Shown: piece by piece, positions 47 through 17,699 of the stretch
How the letters are laid out: each line of letters starts with the position of its first letter
Numbering within the stretch: the stretch's first letter is position 1
Source of the DNA: an uncultured Burkholderiaceae bacterium
GTDB lineage: Bacteria; Pseudomonadota; Gammaproteobacteria; Burkholderiales; Burkholderiaceae_F
Direction of reading: 5' to 3'
DNA: 64,000 nt
Assembly (NCBI GenBank): GCA_964608115.1
Contig: CAZSOI010000040.1
Location: 3,818 to 67,817 of the forward strand
The notes under the pieces: generated by a model
Databases searched by the model: none
The model's input: only the letters and a program-made list of their open reading frames with translations
What the model was told of the DNA's origin: nothing
Program-made: the position numbers and the translations under genes

Positions 47-262
47 TTACAGTTTGATGAGCTTTCCTTGGACGGCCAAAGCCACCGCCTGAATGCGGGT
101 GACCGCTCCTAGCTTGGCGCGGGCCTCGTCGAGGGAAAAATCAACAGTGCGCTTGGTCAAACCCATTGCCCGTGCGATCTCATCGGAGGTCATTCCCCGC
201 GCCGACCGGGTCAGCATCTCTGTCTGGCGAGGACTTAGCACTGGCTGACGTGCTTTTCTCAT
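47..262 (-). CDS. Stand-alone LuxR/NarL-type helix-turn-helix protein (71 aa, no receiver domain)
   Basis: LSPRQTEML..SARGMTSDEIARAMGLTKRTVDF..DEARAKLG is a LuxR C-terminal HTH. It lies 17 bp downstream of, and co-oriented with, a REC-LuxR gene. Confidence 0.8.
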   Translation of the reverse strand: MRKARQPVLSPRQTEMLTRSARGMTSDEIARAMGLTKRTVDFSLDEARAKLGAVTRIQAVALAVQGKLIKL

Positions 263-279
263 GGCGTGTCCACTGCCAA

Positions 280-885
280 CTATGGCTCAATGAGTCTTCG
301 CGCGGCTGCCTTGACCACTGCCTCCACGCGAGTGACGGCACCCAGTTTTCCGCGCGCCGAATCCAAGTGGGCGTCGACGGTCGCCTTGGTCAAGCCAATT
401 ATCTGTGCGATCTCCGACGAAGTCTTGCCGCGCGCCGACCAAGTAAGTGCCTCGATCTCACGGTCGGTAAGCTTGACCGGTGGTGGCGCTTCCCCCATGT
501 GCTCGACTCGCGCCAAGCGAGCGTTGATGATCTCAGCGAGCAATTCGAAGTCGATCGGTTTCGTCACATAGTCATCGGCGCCCAGCGTTCTGCCCTTGAG
601 TTCGTGTTCGCGATCCGTCAACGCGGTGAGAAAAATAAACGGCATGTTGGCAAAGCGCGGGGCAATGGCCGTCAACGCCTCGAGCACCTGAAAGCCCGAC
701 ATCGTCGGCAAGTTTATGTCGCACAAGACCAGATCCGGTGGTTCCTTGAGCAACGTCGCCATCGCCTCACGGCCATCGTAGGCAAGACGCACGGCAAAGC
801 CCCGCACAATCAGATCCTCGGCCACCAAGGCCGCGACCTCGCGATCGTCCTCGATGCATAAAATGGTCTTCTGAGGATTTGACAT
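280..885 (-). CDS. Two-component response regulator, REC + LuxR HTH
   Basis: ILCIEDD, DLVLCDINLP (phosphoacceptor Asp), GADDYVTKP, then a LuxR HTH. Start trimmed from the ORF call at 972 to the ATG at 885 (MSNPQKTILCIEDD), by comparison with the paralogue at 15305-15910. Confidence 0.9.
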   Translation of the reverse strand: MSNPQKTILCIEDDREVAALVAEDLIVRGFAVRLAYDGREAMATLLKEPPDLVLCDINLPTMSGFQVLEALTAIAPRFANMPFIFLTALTDREHELKGRTLGADDYVTKPIDFELLAEIINARLARVEHMGEAPPPVKLTDREIEALTWSARGKTSSEIAQIIGLTKATVDAHLDSARGKLGAVTRVEAVVKAAARRLIEP

Positions 886-1000: not shown

Positions 1001-1031
1001 ACTGTGATTAGACATAGGTATTTGTCACAGT
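1001..1031. promoter_or_regulatory. Inverted repeat ACTGTGA-N17-TCACAGT upstream of the response regulator
   Basis: Read directly: ACTGTGA at 1001-1007, TCACAGT at 1025-1031. Same heptamer as the palindrome at 10335-10374. Function is inferred. Confidence 0.4.
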
Positions 1032-5946: not shown

Positions 5947-6623
5947 GGCACCTTACTTCTGAGGCAATGATGAGCGCGGTGCGTGCGGCACTGGCGACCT
6001 TGATTCTTTGCGGAGTGCTCTACCCGCTGGCGTTGACTGCGATCGGTCAGTTGATTTTCCCGTTTGAGGCCAACGGCAGCTTGCTGCGCGCGCCCGAGGG
6101 CACCGTTTTGGGATCAAGACTCATCGGGCAGCAATGGGACGGACCGCAGTGGTTTCACGGCCGCCCATCGGCGACGATCACGACGGACCCCAGCGATCCA
6201 AGCAAAGCGGTGCCGGCGCCTTATAACGCGGCCAATTCCGGCGGCTCGAACCTAGGGCCGACCAATAAAAACCTGATGCAGCGTCTTTTAGCGGATCGAG
6301 CGTCGCTCGAATCGGCGCAGCCGGAGCTTTTGGGAAAAAATCTCCCCGCTGACATGTTGACCACCTCCGCTTCCGGATTGGATCCGGATATCAGTCCCGA
6401 AAACGCTTTGTTGCAGCTCGCTCGCGTGGCTCGTGCGCGCGATGCGGAACCTGCGCGCCTGCAGGCACTCGTGCAGCGGTACACGACCACACGCGTCTTT
6501 GGGGTTTTTGGCGAACCGCGCGTGAACGTTTTGGAATTAAACCTTGCCCTGCAGCGCGCGTGCCCATTAAACGAAACTCACCCGGAGAACCGAGAGTGCG
6601 GATTTCATAGAGCAAACAACTAG
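5943..6623 (+). CDS. kdpC: K+-transporting ATPase subunit C
   Basis: YPLALT..GQ..FPFEANGS, FHGRPSA, SGGSNLGP, TTSASGLDPDIS, GEPRVNVLELNLAL; ATGA overlap with kdpB. Confidence 0.97.
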   Translation: MRHLTSEAMMSAVRAALATLILCGVLYPLALTAIGQLIFPFEANGSLLRAPEGTVLGSRLIGQQWDGPQWFHGRPSATITTDPSDPSKAVPAPYNAANSGGSNLGPTNKNLMQRLLADRASLESAQPELLGKNLPADMLTTSASGLDPDISPENALLQLARVARARDAEPARLQALVQRYTTTRVFGVFGEPRVNVLELNLALQRACPLNETHPENRECGFHRANN

Positions 6624-7319
6624 TCTTTGCCGCAGCCTTATCTACATGCGGCATCCCGAAGATGCGGAGCGCATCAAGCCCTCTCATAGCGCGCGCTAGA
6701 TACTTCGAAGTGCCGTTCAACCCAACGCAAACGCATTGCGGGATCGCGACTGGCTCCAAAGTTCCGAACTGCTGCACGTCCTTTTTTTCGCGGGTCCATA
6801 AGACCATCAAGCTCTGGCGCCTACCGGTAGACCTCTGGCGTGACGACACCCGCCTCGAGGTATGCGCCAACTGCCTGCGGTGTGCGACGCGAGCTCGTCG
6901 TCGCAGGGAAAGAAAATGCTTTCGGGCCCGCAGTGGGCGAAGTTCGCACCATTGAAGTGCAATTGGGCACTCCCGCCGAACATAGGCACCGCAAAAACTT
7001 CCGCGCCTCGACAAACGAAGCGCAGTGCAAAGCGAACGCTTCTGTCGCTAAGGCGCGCTGACTTGTCCAGCGCGAACGATGCGCCTGCGGCATTGGGCAA
7101 GTCATCCGCTATGCCCGCTTGCTGTGCGAAACGCAATGCGTAACGCACCAAGGATGCGCATGGGGCGCGCAGATGCTCATGCGCCAAGGCCCTGCCTGCA
7201 TTTCAGCGAGCAAGCATGCACGCGCTTTAAGTTGCGGTGCACGAGTCTTGGGTGGAAAATACTGACGCTCTTTCAAGGTTTAAGAGGCGAGCTTTATCAA
7301 TACAGAAAAAGGTGGACTT

Positions 7320-7643
7320 ATGAATCGCAATTTGAAGTTGGCAGCGCTCACTGCGGCGCTTTTTTTGGGCGTCGCGGGAACAGGAGTTGCCTTCGGCGCG
7401 GACATGGACAAAGACAAAGAAGCGCAAAAGACGAAGAACGTGGAGGCGGGCTATTGGGAAACGAAGGATCTGCTGCGCCTGATGGATAAGGACAAAAACG
7501 GGAAGGTCTCCAAAAAGGAATTTATGGAGTACATGGAGGCCGAATTCGACCGGCTGGACACCGACCACAATGGCGAGCTGGACGTAAGCGAGTTGTCGCA
7601 AATGAGGGTTAGTAAGCACACGGGTGGTTCAGGCAGCCGGTAG
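7320..7643 (+). CDS. Secreted/periplasmic two-EF-hand calcium-binding protein
   Basis: Sec signal (MNRNLKLAALTAALFLGVAGTGVAFG-A), then two canonical 12-residue EF loops, DKDKNGKVSKKE and DTDHNGELDVSE. GGA RBS-like sequence upstream. Confidence 0.85.
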   Translation: MNRNLKLAALTAALFLGVAGTGVAFGADMDKDKEAQKTKNVEAGYWETKDLLRLMDKDKNGKVSKKEFMEYMEAEFDRLDTDHNGELDVSELSQMRVSKHTGGSGSR

Positions 7644-8028
7644 GCGGCGAAGAAAAGACAGCACAGCGGCAAGCGGAGATCGGCTGCTGGTCGATGGAGC
7701 CTACAGGGTGGGGCTTCCCTACAGGCCTTTTGCGCGGCCAGCAAGCGATGATTGTCGTGCTGCCGAGGAGGGCGGGGAAGCAAATTGACGCGCCAGCGTA
7801 AAGCCCTTGACCTACGGCTGGGCGCGAGGTCAATCATTCTGGCCAACGCGCAGATGTCCGAGGGGTGCTAGGCGCTATTGCGTGCGCTTACGCAGGCATC
7901 TGCCACTTGCTACAAAACGCCCACGAGACTTCCCCGAGATAAGCGCGAAGCGGGGGCCCACAAAATCGTGCCTCGCGCCTCGCAGCCCCCGTAGTGCCCG
8001 CGCAACAGCTGCGGAAAGAGGCAAAGCG

Positions 8029-8367
8029 CTATAGCGCTCCTTTGCCTGTCTCCCCAGTGCGAATTCGCACGACCTGTTCTAGGTCGTAGACGAAAATCTT
8101 GCCATCACCGACCTTCCCGGTAACTGCAGAGTGTTGGATGGCATCAATTGCGCGTGGGGCGAGCTCGGCATCGACCGCCACTTCGAGCATCAGCTTGGGC
8201 AGAAAGTTCACCTCGTACTCCCCGCCGCGGTACATGTGCGCGTGTCCTTTTTGCCGGCCAAAGCCCTTGGATTCCGTAATCGTGACGCCCTGCACGCCGA
8301 CTGCAGCCAGCGCCTCTCGGACCGCGTCCAGCTTAAACGGCTTGATAATGGCAACTATGTATTTCAT
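8029..8367 (-). CDS. glnK: P-II family nitrogen regulatory protein (GlnK/GlnB type, 112 aa)
   Basis: MKYIVAIIKPFKL, KGFGRQKG, Tyr51 in YRGGEY, GKVGDGKIF, RIRTGE. True start is the ATG at 8367; the ORF-track extension to 8547 looks spurious. The glnK versus glnB assignment is not certain. Confidence 0.93.
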   Translation of the reverse strand: MKYIVAIIKPFKLDAVREALAAVGVQGVTITESKGFGRQKGHAHMYRGGEYEVNFLPKLMLEVAVDAELAPRAIDAIQHSAVTGKVGDGKIFVYDLEQVVRIRTGETGKGAL

Positions 8368-8673: not shown

Positions 8674-10242
8674 TTAGTTGGCTTTGGCTTCGCCAGAGGC
8701 CGCCGATGCGTTGGTTTGCTGCTCAGTTAATTCCGTCCGATTCCACCACCCGCCGCCAAGAGCCTGGAACAGGGCGGCGGTGTCCCCATAGCGATTGCTC
8801 TGCGCCTGAACCAAAGTGATCAACGACTGCTCGTACGCCTCTTGTGCCGCAAGCAGAATGAGGAAATTGACGTAGCCCATCTTGTACTGGCGCTCGGTCA
8901 CGTCCATCATGACTTTTGCGGCCCGTTCGGCCTCCTTGCAAGCCGCCAGACTGTCGGCATCGGACTGCACCGCGTGCAAGGTGTCCGCGACGTTCTGGAA
9001 GGCCGTTATTACGGTGCTTCGATATTGCGCTTGGGCCTGCAGCAGACCCTCTTCGGCGGCGCGCTGCCGATGCAAAAGCGTGAAGCCGTCAAAAAGCGGC
9101 TGCGTAACATCGCCGATCACGTTCCAAAACGGCCCTCCGTTGCGAAACAGCCAGGAAGCCTGGTTCGCCGTGCCACCGACTGCTCCGTTGATCGTGAATT
9201 GCGGCAATCGAGCCGCCACCGCCACGCCAACCTGGGCACTAGCCGAATGCAGTTGCTCCTCGGCCGCGCGCACATCGGGGCGTTGATCGACGAGCTTGGA
9301 GGGCAAGGTTACGGGCAGGTCGGTGGGTAACTTCAGCGAAGAAAATTCAAACGTCGTGTCGATATCCGCATTGGGTAGTTCGCCCAGCAAAGCCCGCAGC
9401 AAGTCGTGTGTGAGCTCCAGCTGCTTGAGCAGCGGGGGCAATTGCTCGCGCGCCTGGGCGAGCGCCGACTCCTGCGCAGCCACGTCCAGGCGCATGACGT
9501 AACCCAGATGAAATTGACTGCGCAAAATCTCCAACGCCTTGGCGTTCTGGTCGATAAAGCGCTGCGTCGCTTCAATCTGCGCGCGCAGCGAAGCTTCTTG
9601 TACCGCCGCCGCCACGACGTTGCCGGCGAGCGTGATATAGGTCGCCTCCATTTCGTACCGCAGCGTATCGGCCTGTGCCTGGAGCGACTCGACCTGCCGG
9701 CGGTTGGCACCAAAGACATCCGGCGTGTAGCCCACGGTCAACTGCGCTGTCTGGAAGTTATAGAACAAGGGTTCGGCGGGAGCGCTCGGTGCAATGAACT
9801 GGCCGTTACCCTGTAGACCCGGTGCATTGGTCGTAGCGATGTTGCCCGGCAGTTTTTGTCGCTCAAAGCTGTATTCGGCCGACACCGTTGGATAGAAAAA
9901 GCCGCGCTGCGCCGCCGTGTATTCCTGTGCCTGGCGCAACGCAGCCCGCGCAGCAGTGATGGTCGGGTTGGCTTTGAGTGCCCGCTCGACCAAAGCATTG
10001 AGTTTGGGCGATTCAAACAGCGTCCACCACGCAAACGCTATGTCCCGGCCCATGACAAAGTGCTGTGCATCTCCGCCAACCACGTCCGCGGAGGCCGTCA
10101 TCTCCGCCATAGGCTTGGGCGCATAGCCGTCGACTTTGGGAGACGCAGGCCGTTGAAAGTCCGGTCCCACCGCACAGGCGCAGACCAATAGCGCGGTGGC
10201 TACCGCGGCCCAGACGCACCGCCCCAATGAAATTGTGCGCAT
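8674..10242 (-). CDS. Outer membrane efflux lipoprotein (NodT/OprM/TolC family OMF)
   Basis: Lipobox VCAC followed by AVGPDF, WWTLF..P.LNALV..AL.ANP, RPDVRAAE..L..A.A..GVA, LFQALGGGWW. ATG 10242 preferred over GTG 10275. Confidence 0.95.
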   Translation of the reverse strand: MRTISLGRCVWAAVATALLVCACAVGPDFQRPASPKVDGYAPKPMAEMTASADVVGGDAQHFVMGRDIAFAWWTLFESPKLNALVERALKANPTITAARAALRQAQEYTAAQRGFFYPTVSAEYSFERQKLPGNIATTNAPGLQGNGQFIAPSAPAEPLFYNFQTAQLTVGYTPDVFGANRRQVESLQAQADTLRYEMEATYITLAGNVVAAAVQEASLRAQIEATQRFIDQNAKALEILRSQFHLGYVMRLDVAAQESALAQAREQLPPLLKQLELTHDLLRALLGELPNADIDTTFEFSSLKLPTDLPVTLPSKLVDQRPDVRAAEEQLHSASAQVGVAVAARLPQFTINGAVGGTANQASWLFRNGGPFWNVIGDVTQPLFDGFTLLHRQRAAEEGLLQAQAQYRSTVITAFQNVADTLHAVQSDADSLAACKEAERAAKVMMDVTERQYKMGYVNFLILLAAQEAYEQSLITLVQAQSNRYGDTAALFQALGGGWWNRTELTEQQTNASAASGEAKAN

Positions 10243-10334
10243 TAGCACCTTCAGATGTCCGTGGCCCCGATTCACGCGGGTCCATTAGCTTAACTACAGG
10301 CGTCGATTCTACGGCTCAGGACAGTGTGCACACC

Positions 10335-10374
10335 ACCGTGATAAATCACAGTGCGTACTGTGATTTATCACGGT
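10335..10374. promoter_or_regulatory. Perfect 40-bp palindrome (18-4-18) in the divergent OMF / MFP-RND promoter; each arm is itself a 7-4-7 dyad
   Basis: ACCGTGATAAATCACAGT-gcgt-ACTGTGATTTATCACGGT read directly; the arms are exact reverse complements. Operator function is inferred. Confidence 0.75.
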
Positions 10375-10429
10375 AGACAGTGTCCGGCCCCAACCGGGAA
10401 CATATACGTTCTTTATAAAGAGGCGGGTT

Positions 10430-11653
10430 ATGCGAATTGGACACAAGCTCGGTGGTGCAGCGAGCGCATTGGCCACGTTGGCCGTGGTGATGGGAATTGC
10501 TGGCTGCTCTGGCGGTGCCTCCAAAGATGCATCGGAGGGCGCCAAGGCTGAAGCCGCAAAGCCGGCAGAGGGCAAAGAGGCAGGAGCTCAAGGCGCCCAG
10601 GCCAGCGTGGACCTGAACGACACACAGGTCAAAACCATCCGCTTTGCCCCGGTCGGTGCTCGCACTTTTCCTCGGCAACGCATCGCCGTAGGCAATATCG
10701 ACTTTAACGAAGATCTCGCAGTGCAGGTTTATTCTCCGTACGCGGGCCGCATCATCCAAGCCTTCGCCCAGTTGGGCGATGAGATCGAGAAGGGCAAAGC
10801 GCTTTTCACGATCGATAGTCCGGACCTCGTGCAGGCCGAATCTACCTTAATTGCGGCTGCTGGCGTCTATGAGCTAACCAGCGCGGCCTTAACGCGCGCC
10901 AAAGGACTCTTTGAAACCCAAGGCATCGCCGAGAAGGACTTGCAGCAGGCGATCTCGGATCAGCAGAGCGCAGAAGGAGCACTCAAGGCGGCCCGCGATG
11001 CGGTGCGCGTTTTTGGTAAATCGGAGGCGCAAATCGACGAGATCGTCGCCAAGCGCAAAATCGATCCGGCGCTCGTTGTTCCCTGCCCGATCAGCGGCCG
11101 CGTCACGGCGCGCAACGCCCAGCCTGGTTTGTTCGTGCAACCGGGCAGTCCGCCCGCACCCTATGCCGTCGCCGACCTATCGACCATGTGGATGCTAGCC
11201 GACGTTACCGAAAGCGACATCCCCATGTTCCGTTTGGGACAGTCGGTGCGCGTGAAGGTGTTGGCTTTCCCCGACCGTGACTTCGAGGGAAAGGTGACCA
11301 ACATTGGTGCGACCGTCGATCCCACGACACGTACCGTCGTGGTGCGCTCGGAAATCCGCGATCCGAAACACGAACTGCGCCCGGGTATGTTTGCAACGTA
11401 CGTCATCAACGTCCAGGCTCCGGTAAAGGGTCTCGCCGTGCCGCTGGCGGGCATCGTGCGCGAGGGCGATGGCACGATGACCGCATGGGTCACCACGGAT
11501 GGACACCATTTCACTAGGCGCATCGTCAAAGTGGGCCTGCAGGAAGGCGGGTTCGACCAGATTCTCGAGGGCCTGCAGCCCGGCGAGCAGGTCGTTACCG
11601 ACGGAGCAGTATTTCTGAGCAACATGGTTGCCTCCGCCGGAACCGAAACCTAA
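10430..11653 (+). CDS. RND efflux periplasmic adaptor (MFP, CzcB/CusB-like family)
   Basis: Lipoprotein-like signal (GIAGC), VYSPYAGRI, DSPDLVQAE, CPISGRV, GATVDPTTRT, LRPGMF, GEQVVTDGA; directly upstream of the RND gene. Confidence 0.95.
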   Translation: MRIGHKLGGAASALATLAVVMGIAGCSGGASKDASEGAKAEAAKPAEGKEAGAQGAQASVDLNDTQVKTIRFAPVGARTFPRQRIAVGNIDFNEDLAVQVYSPYAGRIIQAFAQLGDEIEKGKALFTIDSPDLVQAESTLIAAAGVYELTSAALTRAKGLFETQGIAEKDLQQAISDQQSAEGALKAARDAVRVFGKSEAQIDEIVAKRKIDPALVVPCPISGRVTARNAQPGLFVQPGSPPAPYAVADLSTMWMLADVTESDIPMFRLGQSVRVKVLAFPDRDFEGKVTNIGATVDPTTRTVVVRSEIRDPKHELRPGMFATYVINVQAPVKGLAVPLAGIVREGDGTMTAWVTTDGHHFTRRIVKVGLQEGGFDQILEGLQPGEQVVTDGAVFLSNMVASAGTET

Positions 11654-11677: not shown

Positions 11678-14600
11678 GTGTTCAAAACTGTTCTTGCCTT
11701 TTGCTTGACGCGCCGGGCCGTCGTGATGATGGGCCTGCTGGTGCTGCTCGGTGCCGGGGCCATCGCTGTCAACAAGCTCAACATCGAGGCTTACCCCAAC
11801 CCTGCGCCGGTGATTTTAGAAATCACCGCGCAGGCTCCGGGCCTGTCCGCGGAGGAGATGGAGCGCTATTACACGACCCCCATGGAAATTGGGCTGTACT
11901 CGACGCCGGGAATTTCGAATATCCGCTCGACGTCCTTTTACGGTCTTTCCTTCGTGCGCGTCACCTTCAAATACGGCGTCGACTACTTTTTTGCGTACAC
12001 GCAGGCGGCGTTGAGCCTGCAGCAAAACGTCAACCTGCCCGGGAGTCAGGTTCCGCAAATCCAGCAATCGAGCCTCGTCGGCGAGGTCTACCGCTATCAG
12101 GTCGTCGGCCCCCAGCATTTTGGATTGACCAATCTGCGCACGGTGCAAGACTGGATCATTTTGCGCCGTCTGTCGACAATCCCCGGGGTAGTCGCGATCA
12201 ACAGCTGGGGCGGCACCACCAAGGAATTCGACGTCAAGATCGACCAAGGCAAATTGCAAGCCTATGGGCTCACGGTGCCGCAGATCATTACCGCCCTGGG
12301 CAACGCGAACATCAACGTCGGCGGACGTGAGATCGCAATTGGCCAGCAGTCCATCAACATCCGTGGGGTAGGACTGATCGACAGTGGTGGCAGCGACGAT
12401 CTGACCAAAGGCTACAAGGTCGAGGACATTGAAAACGTCGTCCTGACGCAAAACAACGGTGTGCCGGTGTTGGTGAAACATGTCGCGCAAGTCGACGTGG
12501 GATACGTGCCTCGGCTGGGCATCGCCGGGCGTGATCACGAGGACGACATTGCGGCGGCCATCGTCGTGATGGGCCGCACCCAGCACACCAACGAGATCGT
12601 TCCGCGCATTAAAGAGGTCGTGGAGAAGATGAACCACGACGGAAGCTTACCTCCGGGAGTGAAGATCGTCCCGTATTACGACCGCACTTCGCTGGTCGAC
12701 GTAACCACCCACACCGTATTTCACAATCTGGTTTTCGGGTGCCTGTTGGTGTTTCTGATCCAGTGGATCTTTCTGGGTGACCTGCGCAGCGCGATCATTG
12801 TTGGCGTCAACATTCCGTTTGCGCTGCTCTTTAGCATTATCTTGTTGGTGCTGCAGGGCGAGGACGCCAACTTGCTTTCGATCGGAGCCGTGGACTTTGG
12901 CATCATCGTCGATTCCGCGGTGATCTTGGTCGAGAACATCTTTCGCAACTTTCAGTCGAACAAGGACGTCCGGCGTCGATTGCTTGAGGACCTCGCAGAA
13001 GGCCAGTTGGGTAGTGATCCGACACATTTTCGGGACGTAAATCATCGCCGTACATGGAACAACCGCCTGCGGCTGATTCTGATCAGTGCCTTGCAAGTGG
13101 ATCGCGCCATATTGTTTTCGGTCGCAATTACGGTGGCCGCATTCGTACCCTTGTTCACCATGCAGGGCGTCGAGGGCCAGATCTTCGGTCCCATGGCCAG
13201 AACGTATGCCTATGCACTGACCGGTGCATTGATTGCCACTTTTACCGTCACACCGGTGCTGGCCTCCTTCGTTTTACCAGCGCATGTGGAGGAAGTCGAA
13301 ACCATCGTGGTGCGCGCGATTCGCTCGGTGTACACCCCGCTGCTTCGCTGGTCGCTGTCAAATCGGGGAGTCGTGGTCGGCGCCGGAGTGATCTTTCTCG
13401 TGCTAACCGGGCTGTTGATCGGGCGACTGGGTTCGGAATTTTTGCCGGCCCTTGAGGAAGGTAACTACTGGATACGGGCTTCCATGCCACCGACGATGTC
13501 GCTGGAAGCGGGCACTCGTGCGGCCGGCAAAATGCGCGAGATTCTAATAAGCCACCCGGAAATCCTGACCGTCGTCTCCCAGCACGGGCGTCCCGACAAC
13601 GGCAGCGACGCATCGCCCTTCTCCAATGTCGAGCTGTTTGCTCCCTTAAAGCCCTTTGACGAATGGCCCTCCGGTTTGACCAAGGACAAGCTCACGGAAC
13701 AATTGCAAAAGCAATTCAACGACGAGTTGCCCGGGGTGACCTTTAACTTCTCGCAGTACATTCAGGACAACGTCGAGGAAGCCATCTCGGGAGTCAAAGG
13801 CGCCAATTCGGTCAAGATCATCGGACCTAATCTCGTTGTACTCGAGCAGATTGCTGCGCAGGTGATGGAGCAGATGAGGGCCGTGCGCGGCGTGGAGGAC
13901 CTGGGGCTGTTTAACGTCCTTGGCCAGCCCAATCTGAACGTTAAGGTCGACCGAGCCAAAGCGGCGCGCTATGGCTTAAATAGCGGAGACGTCAACACGG
14001 TGATCCAGGCAGCGATGGGCGGCGTAACCGCCAGCACAGTGCTGGAAAACGAGCGTCAGTTCAACCTGGAGGTACGCTTTTTACCCAAGTACCGCGACAG
14101 CATCGAGAACGTAGGCAACATTCGGGTCGGCTATCAAACGGCTAGCGGCGCCACCGGGTATGTCCCTTTACGCGATGTAGCAAACATCAGCCTGGATACC
14201 GGTGCCTCCTACATCTATCACGAGGCAACCCAGCGGTTCATTCCGATCAAGTTCAGCGTGCGGGGGCGCGATTTGGGCGGCACGGTGGCCGAGGCGCAAA
14301 GTCGCATCGCGAAGAACGTACCCCTGCCCACCGGCTACCGCATCATCTGGGCCGGTGAGTTCGAGGACCTGCAACTAGCGCAAAAACGCCTTGAGGTCAT
14401 TGTGCCAATCAGCCTTGCGCTCATCCTCATGCTGCTGTACGCGCTGTTTAATTCGCTGCGCGACAGCCTGCTCGCGCTGTCCGGGATTCCTTTTGCCATT
14501 GGGGGCGGAGTGTTGGCGCTATACATTGCGGGACTGCCGTTCAGCATTTCGGGGGCAATTGGCTTTATTTCGCTGTTTGGTGTTTCGGTAATGAACGGGA

Positions 14601-14923
14601 TTTTGCTCATTACTTACTACCATCAGACGCGCTCGCACGGTCTTAGCAATATCGATGCGATGTTTCTTGCGGGAGAGCAGCGTATGCGGCCCATGCTCAT
14701 GACGGCACTCTCGGCCTGCATCGGTTTGTTGCCGGCCGCCCTGTCCCATGGCATTGGCAGCCAAGTGCAACGGCCCCTGGCTACTGTCGTCGTCGGCGGA
14801 TTGTTGCTCGGACCGATCATGCTCTTGGTCGTGGTGCCCGCCCTGCAGACGCTGTTCATGGGTCGGGAAGATCAGATGCCACCGGCAGCGCACGAGACTG
14901 CGCGCGGAATTGACGCCGAATGA
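11678..14923 (+). CDS. Heavy-metal-efflux type RND permease (CusA/CzcA family)
   Basis: 1081 aa; IEAYP, GAVDFGIIVDSAVILVEN proton relay, FLPALEEG, RMRPMLMTAL, GSQVQRPLATVVVGG. Confidence 0.95.
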   Translation: MFKTVLAFCLTRRAVVMMGLLVLLGAGAIAVNKLNIEAYPNPAPVILEITAQAPGLSAEEMERYYTTPMEIGLYSTPGISNIRSTSFYGLSFVRVTFKYGVDYFFAYTQAALSLQQNVNLPGSQVPQIQQSSLVGEVYRYQVVGPQHFGLTNLRTVQDWIILRRLSTIPGVVAINSWGGTTKEFDVKIDQGKLQAYGLTVPQIITALGNANINVGGREIAIGQQSINIRGVGLIDSGGSDDLTKGYKVEDIENVVLTQNNGVPVLVKHVAQVDVGYVPRLGIAGRDHEDDIAAAIVVMGRTQHTNEIVPRIKEVVEKMNHDGSLPPGVKIVPYYDRTSLVDVTTHTVFHNLVFGCLLVFLIQWIFLGDLRSAIIVGVNIPFALLFSIILLVLQGEDANLLSIGAVDFGIIVDSAVILVENIFRNFQSNKDVRRRLLEDLAEGQLGSDPTHFRDVNHRRTWNNRLRLILISALQVDRAILFSVAITVAAFVPLFTMQGVEGQIFGPMARTYAYALTGALIATFTVTPVLASFVLPAHVEEVETIVVRAIRSVYTPLLRWSLSNRGVVVGAGVIFLVLTGLLIGRLGSEFLPALEEGNYWIRASMPPTMSLEAGTRAAGKMREILISHPEILTVVSQHGRPDNGSDASPFSNVELFAPLKPFDEWPSGLTKDKLTEQLQKQFNDELPGVTFNFSQYIQDNVEEAISGVKGANSVKIIGPNLVVLEQIAAQVMEQMRAVRGVEDLGLFNVLGQPNLNVKVDRAKAARYGLNSGDVNTVIQAAMGGVTASTVLENERQFNLEVRFLPKYRDSIENVGNIRVGYQTASGATGYVPLRDVANISLDTGASYIYHEATQRFIPIKFSVRGRDLGGTVAEAQSRIAKNVPLPTGYRIIWAGEFEDLQLAQKRLEVIVPISLALILMLLYALFNSLRDSLLALSGIPFAIGGGVLALYIAGLPFSISGAIGFISLFGVSVMNGILLITYYHQTRSHGLSNIDAMFLAGEQRMRPMLMTALSACIGLLPAALSHGIGSQVQRPLATVVVGGLLLGPIMLLVVVPALQTLFMGREDQMPPAAHETARGIDAE

Positions 14924-15304: not shown

Positions 15305-15910
15305 TTACGGTTCGATCAACCCGCCCGTCGCCGCCTTGACCGCTGCTTGTATTCGAGACGACACACCGAGTTTGCTGCGGGCATTATCGATATGAAAGTC
15401 GACGGTGCGTTTGCTCAGACCCAGTATCGATGCAATCTCGTCGGAGGTCTTCCCGCGCGCCGACCATGTCAGAGTCTCGATTTCGCGCTGGCTCAAGTCG
15501 ACTTGTTTCGACCAAATCTCCAGGCGCGCCACACGCGCCAGGCGCGCGCTGATGATGCTGGCCAGAAGGTCGAAGTCGATCGGCTTGGTGACATAGTCAT
15601 CGGCGCCCAGCCTGCGCCCTTTGAGCTCGCTGTCGCGGTCGGTGAGCGCCGTTAGGAACACAAACGGCATGTTGCGGAAGTTCGGGGCAATCGCAGTTAG
15701 CGCCTCTAATACCTCGAATCCGGACATTCCGGGCAGGTTAATGTCGCACAGTACAAGGTCCGGGCGAATGCGCAAGATCGCGGCAAAACCGTCGTTGCCG
15801 TCGTGCGCCAAGCTCACGTCGTAACCGCGCTCTTCTAGGTCCTCGCGGATCAGCGCAGCGCTTTCTTTATCGTCCTCAATGCAGAGGATTTTCTTACGCT
15901 CTTCTACCAT
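15305..15910 (-). CDS. Two-component response regulator, REC + LuxR HTH (paralogue of 280-885)
   Basis: ILCIEDD, DLVLCDINLPGMSG, GADDYVTKPIDF, WSARGKTSDEIA..LGLSKRTVDFH. Confidence 0.93.
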   Translation of the reverse strand: MVEERKKILCIEDDKESAALIREDLEERGYDVSLAHDGNDGFAAILRIRPDLVLCDINLPGMSGFEVLEALTAIAPNFRNMPFVFLTALTDRDSELKGRRLGADDYVTKPIDFDLLASIISARLARVARLEIWSKQVDLSQREIETLTWSARGKTSDEIASILGLSKRTVDFHIDNARSKLGVSSRIQAAVKAATGGLIEP

Positions 15911-16109
15911 GGCAAGCCAAAACCAACATTTGCTCGGGCGCAGCGCACGCCCAGCACCCCCGGTCTGCGCGCAAGCGACAAGCGCCCGGGTGCCGTATTC
16001 TATTGCCCCCGGCCAGGCGAAGGAACTCGCTGGTCAAAAGGGTTCGGTCGCCGCGACATGGGAAGTCGAGCACGAACACCGGCCGCTCGGCGGAAAGCCA
16101 ACGAAAGTC

Positions 16110-17699
16110 GTGACCCAACGTCATTCCATCCGAATTCGCTTGTCCCTCGCGTTCATCCTCTTGGGGCTGCTGGTTCTCGTGTTGGGCCTGTTTAGCGTCT
16201 GGTGGCTAAGCGACGTCAACGCCGCGTCGGCGGAAATCCGCGATCGTTGGTTGCAAAGCTCCCACTTGCTGGGCGACTTGAACAATTTCACATCCGACTA
16301 TCGCGCCGCCGAGGCCAGCCATTTGCTGGCAACCAGTAAAGTCGAAATGGCGGCAAACGATAAGGAACTTTTGTCCTTGCAAAAGGCGATCAACCAGGCA
16401 TGGCAAAGCTATGAGAAAGTTCCCCATGACGGGGAGGAAACGCGCCTGTGGAAACAGTTCACGGCGGACTGGAACCATTACCGCCAAGTCTCCGACCGGG
16501 TTCTCGCCTTATCGGCGCAGCGCCCCAACGCCCTTGCGATCACGCTCTATGAAGGTGACTCGAAGATGGCGTACGGCGCGGCCAGCGATACGCTAGGCGG
16601 GCTTACTGAGCTGACCGTTACGGGTGCGCGGGCCGCAAGCAATCGTGCGGACCAGGTCTACCGGCATGCGCGCATACTGATTTTTGGCGCTATCGCTCTT
16701 GCCGGAGTGATGATCCTGATCGTCATGAGCCACATCACGCGCTCCGTTTCCCGACCCATACTCGAACTTGCCAGTCGAATGCACACGCTTGCTAAAAGCG
16801 ACACCAATATCGAGATCTCCGGCACTGAACGCAGTGACGAGATCGGGGAAATGGCCCGCGCCGTTGTAGTGTTCCGCAATAACGCGATCGAACTTGCCCA
16901 CAGCCAACGGGGATTGGAGCAACAGGCCTCGATGCTCGCCGAAAAACTCGAACACGAACAGCGGCTGACGACTTTGCAGCGCAATTTTGTGTCGATGGCC
17001 TCGCACGAATTTCGCACCCCCCTTACCATCATCGACGGGCAAGCGCAACGCTTGATCAAAATGGTGGAGCGAATATCACCTGTCGAACTTGGCGAACGTG
17101 CCGGAAAAATTCGAACGGCCGTTCAGCGCCTGACGAATCTTCTGGAGTCCTTGCTCAACTCCTCCCGCCTGATGGAGGCCGACCAGAAGCTGTATTTTCA
17201 TCCGACAGAATTTAACCCCGCAGCACTGCTCCACGAGGTATGCCAGACGCACCGCGAGATCGCAGCGGACGCTTGGGTCATAGAGCACATCAACAATCTG
17301 CCCTCATCCATGCTAGGTGACCCTAAGCTGCTGTACCAGGCCTTTAGCAATCTGGTCTCCAATGCCATCAAATATTCCGCGGTCGGCAAACCGATCCAGC
17401 TCGACGCAGTGTTTGATAAGGATCGGCTGGTAGTTACCGTGCGTGACGAGGGCATCGGGATTCCTCAAGAGGATTTGCCAAGAATGTTCGAACGATACTA
17501 TCGGGGCAGCAACGTTCATGGCATCGTCGGAACCGGAATCGGCCTGTACCTGGTCAAGACCGTTGTCGCCTTGCACGGCGGCGATATCACGGTCGAGAGC
17601 CGCGAGGGCGAGGGATCGAAGTTCACCTTGTGGCTACCGCTTCGTCCTACAGTCGCGTCCACCGAAAGCGCCTTGGCACAGGACGCAGTCAACGCATAA
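16110..17699 (+). CDS. Sensor histidine kinase: TM - four-helix-bundle ligand domain - TM - HAMP - HisKA - HATPase
   Basis: Two TM segments flank a helical periplasmic domain; HAMP ERSDEIGEMARA; H-box SHEFRTPLT; NLVSNAIKYS, DEGIGI, GTGIGL. Start moved to GTG 16110 because the ORF-track start overlaps the divergent regulator. Confidence 0.92.
   Translation: MTQRHSIRIRLSLAFILLGLLVLVLGLFSVWWLSDVNAASAEIRDRWLQSSHLLGDLNNFTSDYRAAEASHLLATSKVEMAANDKELLSLQKAINQAWQSYEKVPHDGEETRLWKQFTADWNHYRQVSDRVLALSAQRPNALAITLYEGDSKMAYGAASDTLGGLTELTVTGARAASNRADQVYRHARILIFGAIALAGVMILIVMSHITRSVSRPILELASRMHTLAKSDTNIEISGTERSDEIGEMARAVVVFRNNAIELAHSQRGLEQQASMLAEKLEHEQRLTTLQRNFVSMASHEFRTPLTIIDGQAQRLIKMVERISPVELGERAGKIRTAVQRLTNLLESLLNSSRLMEADQKLYFHPTEFNPAALLHEVCQTHREIAADAWVIEHINNLPSSMLGDPKLLYQAFSNLVSNAIKYSAVGKPIQLDAVFDKDRLVVTVRDEGIGIPQEDLPRMFERYYRGSNVHGIVGTGIGLYLVKTVVALHGGDITVESREGEGSKFTLWLPLRPTVASTESALAQDAVNA

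Follow-up and report, generated by a model that had tools for sequence, protein, structure and literature searches.

The nearest described relative of the locus reported here is the zni system of C. metallidurans CH34 (Rmet_5319-5323), whose operons are arranged as zniAB divergent from zniC and zniS divergent from zniR (PMC11647585 Table 1). The zni genes are transcribed at a sizeable basal level in unchallenged CH34 cells (PMC9045368 Table 4), they respond in a complex way to metal excess and to EDTA, and their function in this strain is described as minor or unclear (PMC11647595). Two transcription starts have been published, 2029923(-) for zniBA and 2030010(+) for zniC (PMC9045368 Table 4); in a later data set zniCp was found again, the old zniBp (2029923) was not, and a zniB start at 2030059 was given instead (PMC11647595, section 15). 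A binding site of ZniR is absent from the CH34 papers PMC9045368, PMC10127602 and PMC13492112, in which neither 'palindrom' nor 'inverted repeat' occurs. A literature search was also done, and neither a ZniR box nor a LuxR-type regulator of HME-RND pumps was found described in it.

Several known types of operator come close to the one found here. Lux-type boxes fit the pattern CTG-N10-CAG, the site of CRP is TGTGA-N6-TCACA and that of FNR is TTGAT-N4-ATCAA. The tra boxes of TraR are 18-bp inverted repeats: at class II-type promoters they are found about 45 nt before the start and partly overlap the -35, at class I-type promoters about 65 nt before it, and the divergent operons traA and traC are driven from a single tra box (PMC3907764). 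TraR and the tra boxes, and also LuxR with the lux box and the boxes of LasR/RhlR and CviR, share with our locus an 18-bp inverted-repeat operator and a LuxR-type HTH that is predicted to sit on it as a dimer; those regulators have an AHL-binding domain and a pheromone signal, whereas the regulator in the window has a phospho-receiver and would take its signal from a membrane kinase, and the box sequences differ. By analogy, the zni-type promoters look like a two-component version of the TraR design. The operators of the NarL/FixJ group (NarL 7-2-7, DosR box, ComA box) have in common with the locus a regulator made of receiver and GerE-type HTH, as well as short paired-heptad dyads that are often paired at activated promoters, but the HTH in the window is nearer to AHL-type LuxR proteins (E ~1e-12), the kinase is of HisKA and not HisKA_3 type and the half-site is unrelated to those of NarL and DosR. 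The CRP site shares the cores TGTGA / TCACA with the box; the box has a spacer of 4 nt and not 6, and it is locus-specific, with no genome-wide regulon. The original prediction had likewise stated that the element is no canonical CRP (N6) or FNR site, and this is confirmed by the 4-nt spacer, the GTGA/TCAC cores and the lack of genome-wide enrichment.

The module and its paired boxes

The window, by which the whole analysed stretch of 64,000 nucleotides is meant, comes from a 3.99-Mb, 94%-complete MAG of an uncultured Burkholderiaceae member, which is labelled G000 here. Judged by its genes, the locus is a ZniRS/ZniCBA-type module, that is a two-component system together with an HME-RND pump (Table 1). 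The orthologues in CH34 were obtained by tblastn against NC_007974.2 with identities between 44% and 67%, and the match of the regulator on the CH34 chromid coincides with zniR (Rmet_5323) as given in the published transcription-start table. The window and the zni locus of CH34 are alike in their orthologous parts, in the divergent MFP-RND and OMF genes, in the divergent kinase and regulator genes and in the 18-bp box; they differ in the gene order around the regulator pair and in the number of boxes, since CH34 has one box common to both promoters and the window has two boxes 22 bp apart. By its family assignment (TIGR00914), the pump of the window is a putative exporter of divalent metal cations. 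The longest ORF of the kinase extends into the regulator gene, and its start is therefore probably downstream of 15879. Elsewhere in the window, the region 6623-8029 between kdpC and the P-II-like gene has short ORFs only, with no Pfam matches.

Table 1. Features of the locus with their positions in the window; promoter elements are predicted
Feature	Position	Strand	Remarks
71-aa HTH-only LuxR-type gene	47..262	-	After the paralogous regulator gene; keeps KRTVDFSLD
Paralogous REC-LuxR regulator gene	280..885	-	68% identity; KATVDAHLD as recognition helix, which differs from that of all other family members examined
N17 site ACTGTGA-N17-TCACAGT	1001..1031		22 nt from minus-strand GATAAT; precedes the paralogous regulator gene; identical in G006
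OMF gene, NodT-type, ZniC-like	8674..10242	-	Pfam OEP, TIGR01845; 52% identity to CH34 ZniC
Predicted -10 TAGAAT, OMF promoter	10306..10311	-	23 nt from left box; CGATTCTA invariant in four genomes
Left 18-bp box ACCGTGA-TAAA-TCACAGT	10335..10352		OMF-promoter proximal; kept in G006, G012 and G013
Inter-box spacer GCGT	10353..10356		Unconstrained: GTGC in G006, 16-17 nt instead in G012/G013
Right 18-bp box ACTGTGA-TTTA-TCACGGT	10357..10374		MFP-RND-promoter proximal; best conserved block of all four orthologous intergenic regions
Candidate -35-like TAGACA, MFP-RND promoter	10374..10379	+	Starts on the final base of the right box
Predicted -10 GAACAT, MFP-RND promoter	10398..10403	+	23 nt from right box; GAACATAT invariant in four genomes; weak hexamer
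MFP gene, ZniB-like	10430..11653	+	Pfam HlyD_D23, TIGR01730; 56% identity to CH34 ZniB
CusA/CzcA-family heavy-metal RND pump gene, ZniA-like	11678..14923	+	TIGR00914, 830 bits; 67% identity to CH34 ZniA
Response regulator gene, ZniR orthologue, proposed box binder	15305..15910	-	REC (PF00072) + LuxR/GerE HTH (PF00196); 67% identity to CH34 zniR
Sensor histidine kinase gene, ZniS-like	15879..17699	+	4HB_MCP-HAMP-HisKA-HATPase (Pfam); 44% identity to the CH34 kinase; syntenic with the regulator in most loci

The element at 10335-10374 is an 18-4-18 inverted repeat whose two arms of 18 nt each are 100% complementary. Each arm is in turn a 7-4-7 dyad whose heptads (ACCGTGA / TCACAGT) are complementary at 6/7 positions, with one mismatch; it is of the type ACYGTGA-N4-TCACRGT and has only A/T in its inner 4-nt spacer. 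The dyad centres are at 10343.5 and 10365.5, which is 22 bp apart, and the four heptads follow with an 11-bp pitch. The original prediction had described this architecture, an 18-4-18 inverted repeat with near-perfect dyads as arms and centres 22 bp apart, and the sequence bears it out. Its term of a perfect 40-bp palindrome is right for the fully complementary arms, but the central GCGT is not self-complementary, so the 40-bp element is an inverted repeat and no strict palindrome. It had also been called AT-rich against its background and placed between divergent OMF and MFP genes, and both statements stand: its GC content is 42.5% as compared to 59.4% for the genome, and it is situated between the OMF gene (ATG at 10242; longest ORF start at 10275) and the MFP gene (ATG at 10430). 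The stretch GACAGTGT is found on either side of the element (10320 and 10376) in a non-symmetrical way.

Searches of the genome for further copies were done at several levels of stringency. When up to 3 mismatches were allowed, the arm sequence occurred nowhere in the 3.99 Mb other than in the two arms themselves; for the window, 0.03 occurrences are expected by chance at this threshold and 2 are seen, both being the arms. A weight matrix derived from the orthologous sites scored both boxes at 29.4 bits and the runner-up genomic site at 16.2 bits. The bare GTGA-N4-TCAC core is not enriched, with 30 genomic cases against 25-43 at other spacings. As the genome holds no further strong sites and the core is unenriched, the boxes are considered part of a local circuit and not of a global regulon or a mobile repeat. 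The paired-box pattern had zero matches beyond G000 in 400 other genomes of the order. The single-box pattern gave five matches outside the genus in 80 genomes of the family, which is the level of the reversed control and with none adjoining a pump, and therefore the box is not a lineage-wide motif and tracks the regulator module. A pattern scan of metagenomes was also made, and among the matches listed there were only unrelated tandem repeats, none of them linked to a pump.

Occurrence of the box in related genomes

Conservation in orthologous loci had been proposed as a check of the element, and both boxes are indeed kept in the three genomes G006, G012 and G013, which have with G000 a common synteny of P-II, OMF, MFP-RND and then response regulator (minus) and kinase (plus). 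Between G000 and G006 the boxes are identical at 36/36 positions, the remaining intergenic region at 113/151 (75%), and the central 4 nt differ; if the boxes had drifted like their surroundings, the chance of 36/36 would be ~3e-5. The distance between the two boxes is 22 bp in G000, 22 bp in G006, 34 bp in G012 and 35 bp in G013, and in all four syntenic loci each box is 22-23 nt from a conserved -10-like hexamer. In G004, G010, G003 and G001 the MFP-RND operon is without a divergent OMF gene and has exactly one box, which is 22 nt from CAGAAT or GAGAAT. The box-bearing pump is unlinked to the regulator gene in four members of the genus. No box was found between the regulator and kinase genes with up to 3 mismatches, in G000 and in the genus loci checked.

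On these comparisons, what is conserved is one 18-bp box per promoter and not the 40-bp palindrome, whose perfect symmetry is limited to the lineage of G000 and G006. The original prediction of a dimer-of-dimers operator is accordingly kept in part: an operator for a protein, placed in the promoter region between the divergent OMF and MFP genes, is supported on sequence grounds, but the obligate pairing of dimers is not established, because of the spacings of 34-35 bp, the single-box loci and the fixed distance from each box to its own -10-like hexamer.

The search was extended to 80 loci (1.04 Mb) which were fetched by the response-regulator protein. Through this selection by the regulator gene the co-occurrence of box and regulator is partly built in; the placement within the loci, the zero count of the control and the unlinked one-box cases are unaffected by it. 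The module was found in many Alphaproteobacteria, in Cupriavidus, in Curvibacter and in Steroidobacteraceae, with regulators that are 60-77% identical, kinase and regulator genes lying back to back and RND-MFP divergent from OMF, and it looks horizontally spread. There were 49 sites within 2 mismatches of the family consensus ACTGTGA-N4-TCACAGT, whereas the reversed, non-complemented control pattern had 0 matches in the same 80 loci. Nearly all of these sites (45/49) have an MFP, OMF or regulator gene starting at most 400 bp downstream of them, and 0 are inside these genes; about ten of the 49 precede the regulator gene. When head-to-head pairs of the heptad were counted by spacing in the 80 loci, N4 had 25 and the next class, N26, had 4, the latter being the spacing that two boxes at 22 bp from each other give. 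The commonest start-to-start distance in double-box loci is likewise 22 bp (G000, G006 and at least 4 distant loci), the further distances being 18-21, 26, 28, 35 and 39 bp, and the two boxes of distant loci are often in direct orientation.

Some sites were observed in other surroundings. In two Cupriavidus spp. (L082:7628 and L100:7670) a perfect box ACTGTGATCAATCACAGT is found 25-67 bp past the end of the regulator gene, with no Zni-like pump adjoining. In an alphaproteobacterial MAG (L099:3288-3331) a second and more distant MFP-RND operon is preceded by two boxes of the type CCTGTGACAAATCACAGG with 26 bp between them from one to the next.

In CH34 a single box with up to 3 mismatches is present in 20.6 kb, at chromid positions 2029958-2029975 between zniB and zniC, and no box was found at this threshold at the zne pump, which is a neighbour in the same 20.6 kb with its own different regulators. 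The centre of the CH34 box is at -43.5 for both published starts, and the layout on both sides is box, 22 nt, -10 (TAGAAT for zniCp and CATCAT on the other side), 6 nt and start; only the geometry of the zniC side is robust, because the start at 2029923 was not found again. As no ZniR site is mentioned in the CH34 papers, the box is a prediction for CH34 also.

The candidate regulator and the promoter geometry

The boxes are very probably the docking sites of the neighbouring ZniR-orthologue response regulator, as we infer from its recognition helix and from the company that box and regulator keep. A phosphorylatable response regulator had been named as the binder in the original prediction, and it is supported here as the most probable one. 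The regulator has the NarL/FixJ architecture of a receiver and a GerE-type HTH (PF00072 + PF00196). Its N-terminus is a Response_reg receiver with no autoinducer-binding domain, which places it outside the AHL quorum-sensing LuxR family. In structure matches the receiver is closest to OmpR-type receivers, which is consistent with a partner kinase that carries HisKA and not HisKA_3. The HTH (C-terminal 67 residues) has its best PDB matches in RhlR (8e-13), SdiA, LasR, QscR, CviR and TraR, and it is much further from VraR, ComA and DosR (1e-6 to 1e-2). The recognition helix KRTVDFHIDNAR is practically invariant from G000 to the ZniR of CH34, and this matches the conserved box. Both boxes read A-CYG-N10-CRG-T and thus fall within the definition of lux/tra boxes, which are dyads of 18-20 bp with outer CTG...CAG 10 nt apart, and the regulator has the HTH of the LuxR/GerE type of AHL regulators that belongs to such boxes. 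By analogy, this regulator is predicted to work like a LuxR-type activator yet to stand outside the AHL LuxR family.

The promoters were located through their distance from the boxes. The scan with consensus promoters gave no canonical sigma-70 promoter at the element. On the 112 box sides, hexamers were scored as -10-like when they had A in position 2, T in position 6 and at least 3/6 matches; their distance from the edge of the box was 22 nt in 24 cases and 23 nt in 17, with ~3 cases for each other offset. The predicted starts in the window are ~10297-10299 (-) for OMF and ~10410 (+) for MFP-RND, and the box centres are accordingly predicted at about -44.5 from the near start and about -66.5 from the opposite one. 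Lux/tra boxes are centred ~42-45 bp upstream of the start and abut or overlap the -35; in the window such a position is predicted from the -10-like hexamers 23 nt off the boxes. On the MFP side T+AGAC is found after the box in many loci including CH34, and the promoters of the OMF side are without a usable -35. Readings of the conserved GGAAC / GAACATAT block as a sigma-54 or an ECF promoter were tried by eye and rejected, as the conserved downstream elements do not fit.

We consider it probable that the divergent promoters are each activated from about -44.5 through a ZniR-type box, with the binding, the activation and the positions of the starts all deduced by comparison of sequences. The ZniS-like kinase would phosphorylate the ZniR-type regulator, which is encoded 5 kb away from the element (15305-15910), and one dimer of the regulator would occupy each 18-bp lux/tra-box-like operator of the consensus ACTGTGA-N4-TCACAGT. 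Each box would abut the -35 region of one of the back-to-back sigma-70 promoters, the left box that of OMF and the right box that of MFP-RND, and the dimers on both boxes would recruit RNA polymerase in a class-II-like manner, by which OMF and MFP-RND would be switched together. As the boxes are 22 bp apart, each of them would also stand at about -66.5 with respect to the opposite start, in a class-I-like position for the far promoter, and this could couple both promoters. Activation is the favoured mode, as the -35/-10 hexamers are not covered by the box and the promoters of the OMF side have no usable -35. The two dimers may cooperate, since the 22-bp spacing is about two helical turns, would be compatible with both dimers on the same helical face and is recurrent in several distant lineages, but cooperation would not be required, because there are relatives with a spacing of 34-35 bp or with one box.

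Related sites, alternative readings and significance

A second pair of sites was found by looking for head-to-head ACYGTGA...TCACRGT within 40 nt in the whole genome, which gave four pairs, the two N4 boxes and two N17 sites; the difference between the two spacings is 13 bp. One N17 site is in the window (Table 1), and the second ACTGTGA-N17-TCACAGT site is on contig C341 (C341:489-519), 22 nt from CATGAT, where it precedes a second MFP-RND operon. The -10-like hexamers at both N17 sites are followed by TTGCCC or TTGCGC and an A. No N17 pairs were seen in the regulator-fetched loci. Contig C341 stops within an RND gene, of which it has the N-terminal half (model positions 2-560), and contig C40 opens with the C-terminal half of one (507-1020); for this reason the two contigs probably abut, with a second Zni-like pump just upstream of the window. 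The product of the 71-aa HTH-only gene may be a competitor or a partner. It is a tentative and rather doubtful idea that these sites form two insulated sister circuits, in which the ZniR-type regulator would act on N4 at pump 1 and the paralogue, perhaps with the 71-aa HTH protein, on N17 at its own promoter and at the second MFP-RND operon; the boxes of pump 1 would be class-II-type for the near and class-I-type for the far promoter and would lock the expression of OMF and MFP-RND together.

Some LuxR-type proteins are repressors, and the same boxes with the same regulator might serve as the site of a repressor or a dual regulator which, bound beside or over the -35 regions, keeps RNA polymerase off both promoters until it is released by the signal. 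This is unlikely in our view. The overlap of the right box with the first base of the good -35-like TAGACA would suit repression, and so would the sizeable basal transcription of zni in CH34 (PMC9045368 Table 4) together with its complex response to metal excess and EDTA (PMC11647595). However, the box extends from about -53 to -36 with the -35/-10 free, which is the class-II-type position of activation by LuxR and TraR (PMC3907764), and the lack of a usable -35 in the promoters of the OMF side is typical of activator-dependent promoters, whereas repressing sites of the LuxR type usually cover the -10 or the start.

Activation by the neighbouring ZniR-type regulator has next to be weighed against other proteins that could bind the boxes, namely the 71-aa HTH-only protein, the paralogous regulator or an unlinked global factor, e.g. 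of the CRP family. The solo HTH keeps the recognition residues of the family (KRTVDFSLD), the box-bearing pump and the regulator are unlinked in four genus members as given above, and the cores TGTGA / TCACA resemble CRP half-sites. A global factor is opposed by the N4 spacing in place of the N6 of CRP, by the unenriched core and by the absence of any other strong site. Against the two proteins of the window, G000 and G006 are the only ones of the loci examined that have the solo HTH and the paralogue, and the recognition helix of the paralogue is altered, while the box tracks the ZniR-type regulator across classes of Proteobacteria, including sites that precede the regulator gene itself. A binder other than the ZniR orthologue is thus improbable.

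The long inverted repeat could also be thought to act through its own structure, as a cruciform or as a hairpin in DNA or RNA. Its single strand folds at -20 kcal/mol with z = -7.8, a trivial consequence of the palindromy. But the 18-4-18 arrangement is not conserved, as the boxes of G012 and G013 are 16-17 nt apart and their arms are no longer fully paired, the distant two-box loci often have direct orientation and the single-box loci work without a long repeat; the element is moreover upstream of both predicted starts, and hence would not be transcribed. Extrusion of a cruciform, which the original prediction had offered as a further idea, therefore finds no comparative support, and we regard a structural role as very improbable. 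A dispersed REP/MITE-type copy, of which the original prediction had warned, or a neutral remnant of an inverted duplication is hardly credible: the element is a perfect, intergenic inverted repeat with GACAGTGT on both sides, though asymmetric, but its single copy per 3.99 Mb led us to reject a REP/MITE identity, which is defined by copy number, and the 0 matches of the paired-box pattern across 400 further genomes of the order, the strong purifying selection on the boxes and their fixed placement relative to promoter elements speak against both.

The 18-bp ZniR-type box appears undescribed, and it would be an ordinary kind of switch. The mechanism, a response-regulator dimer on a dyad beside the -35, is familiar, and the annotation is thereby refined with no new question opened. 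What the locus offers is a concrete operator sequence and a promoter geometry for the ZniRS-type two-component systems, which go together with one class of heavy-metal RND pumps in numerous soil Proteobacteria, the model C. metallidurans CH34 among them. In these systems one regulatory design would be re-used, either as one box common to two back-to-back promoters or as a box that is duplicated 22 bp apart.
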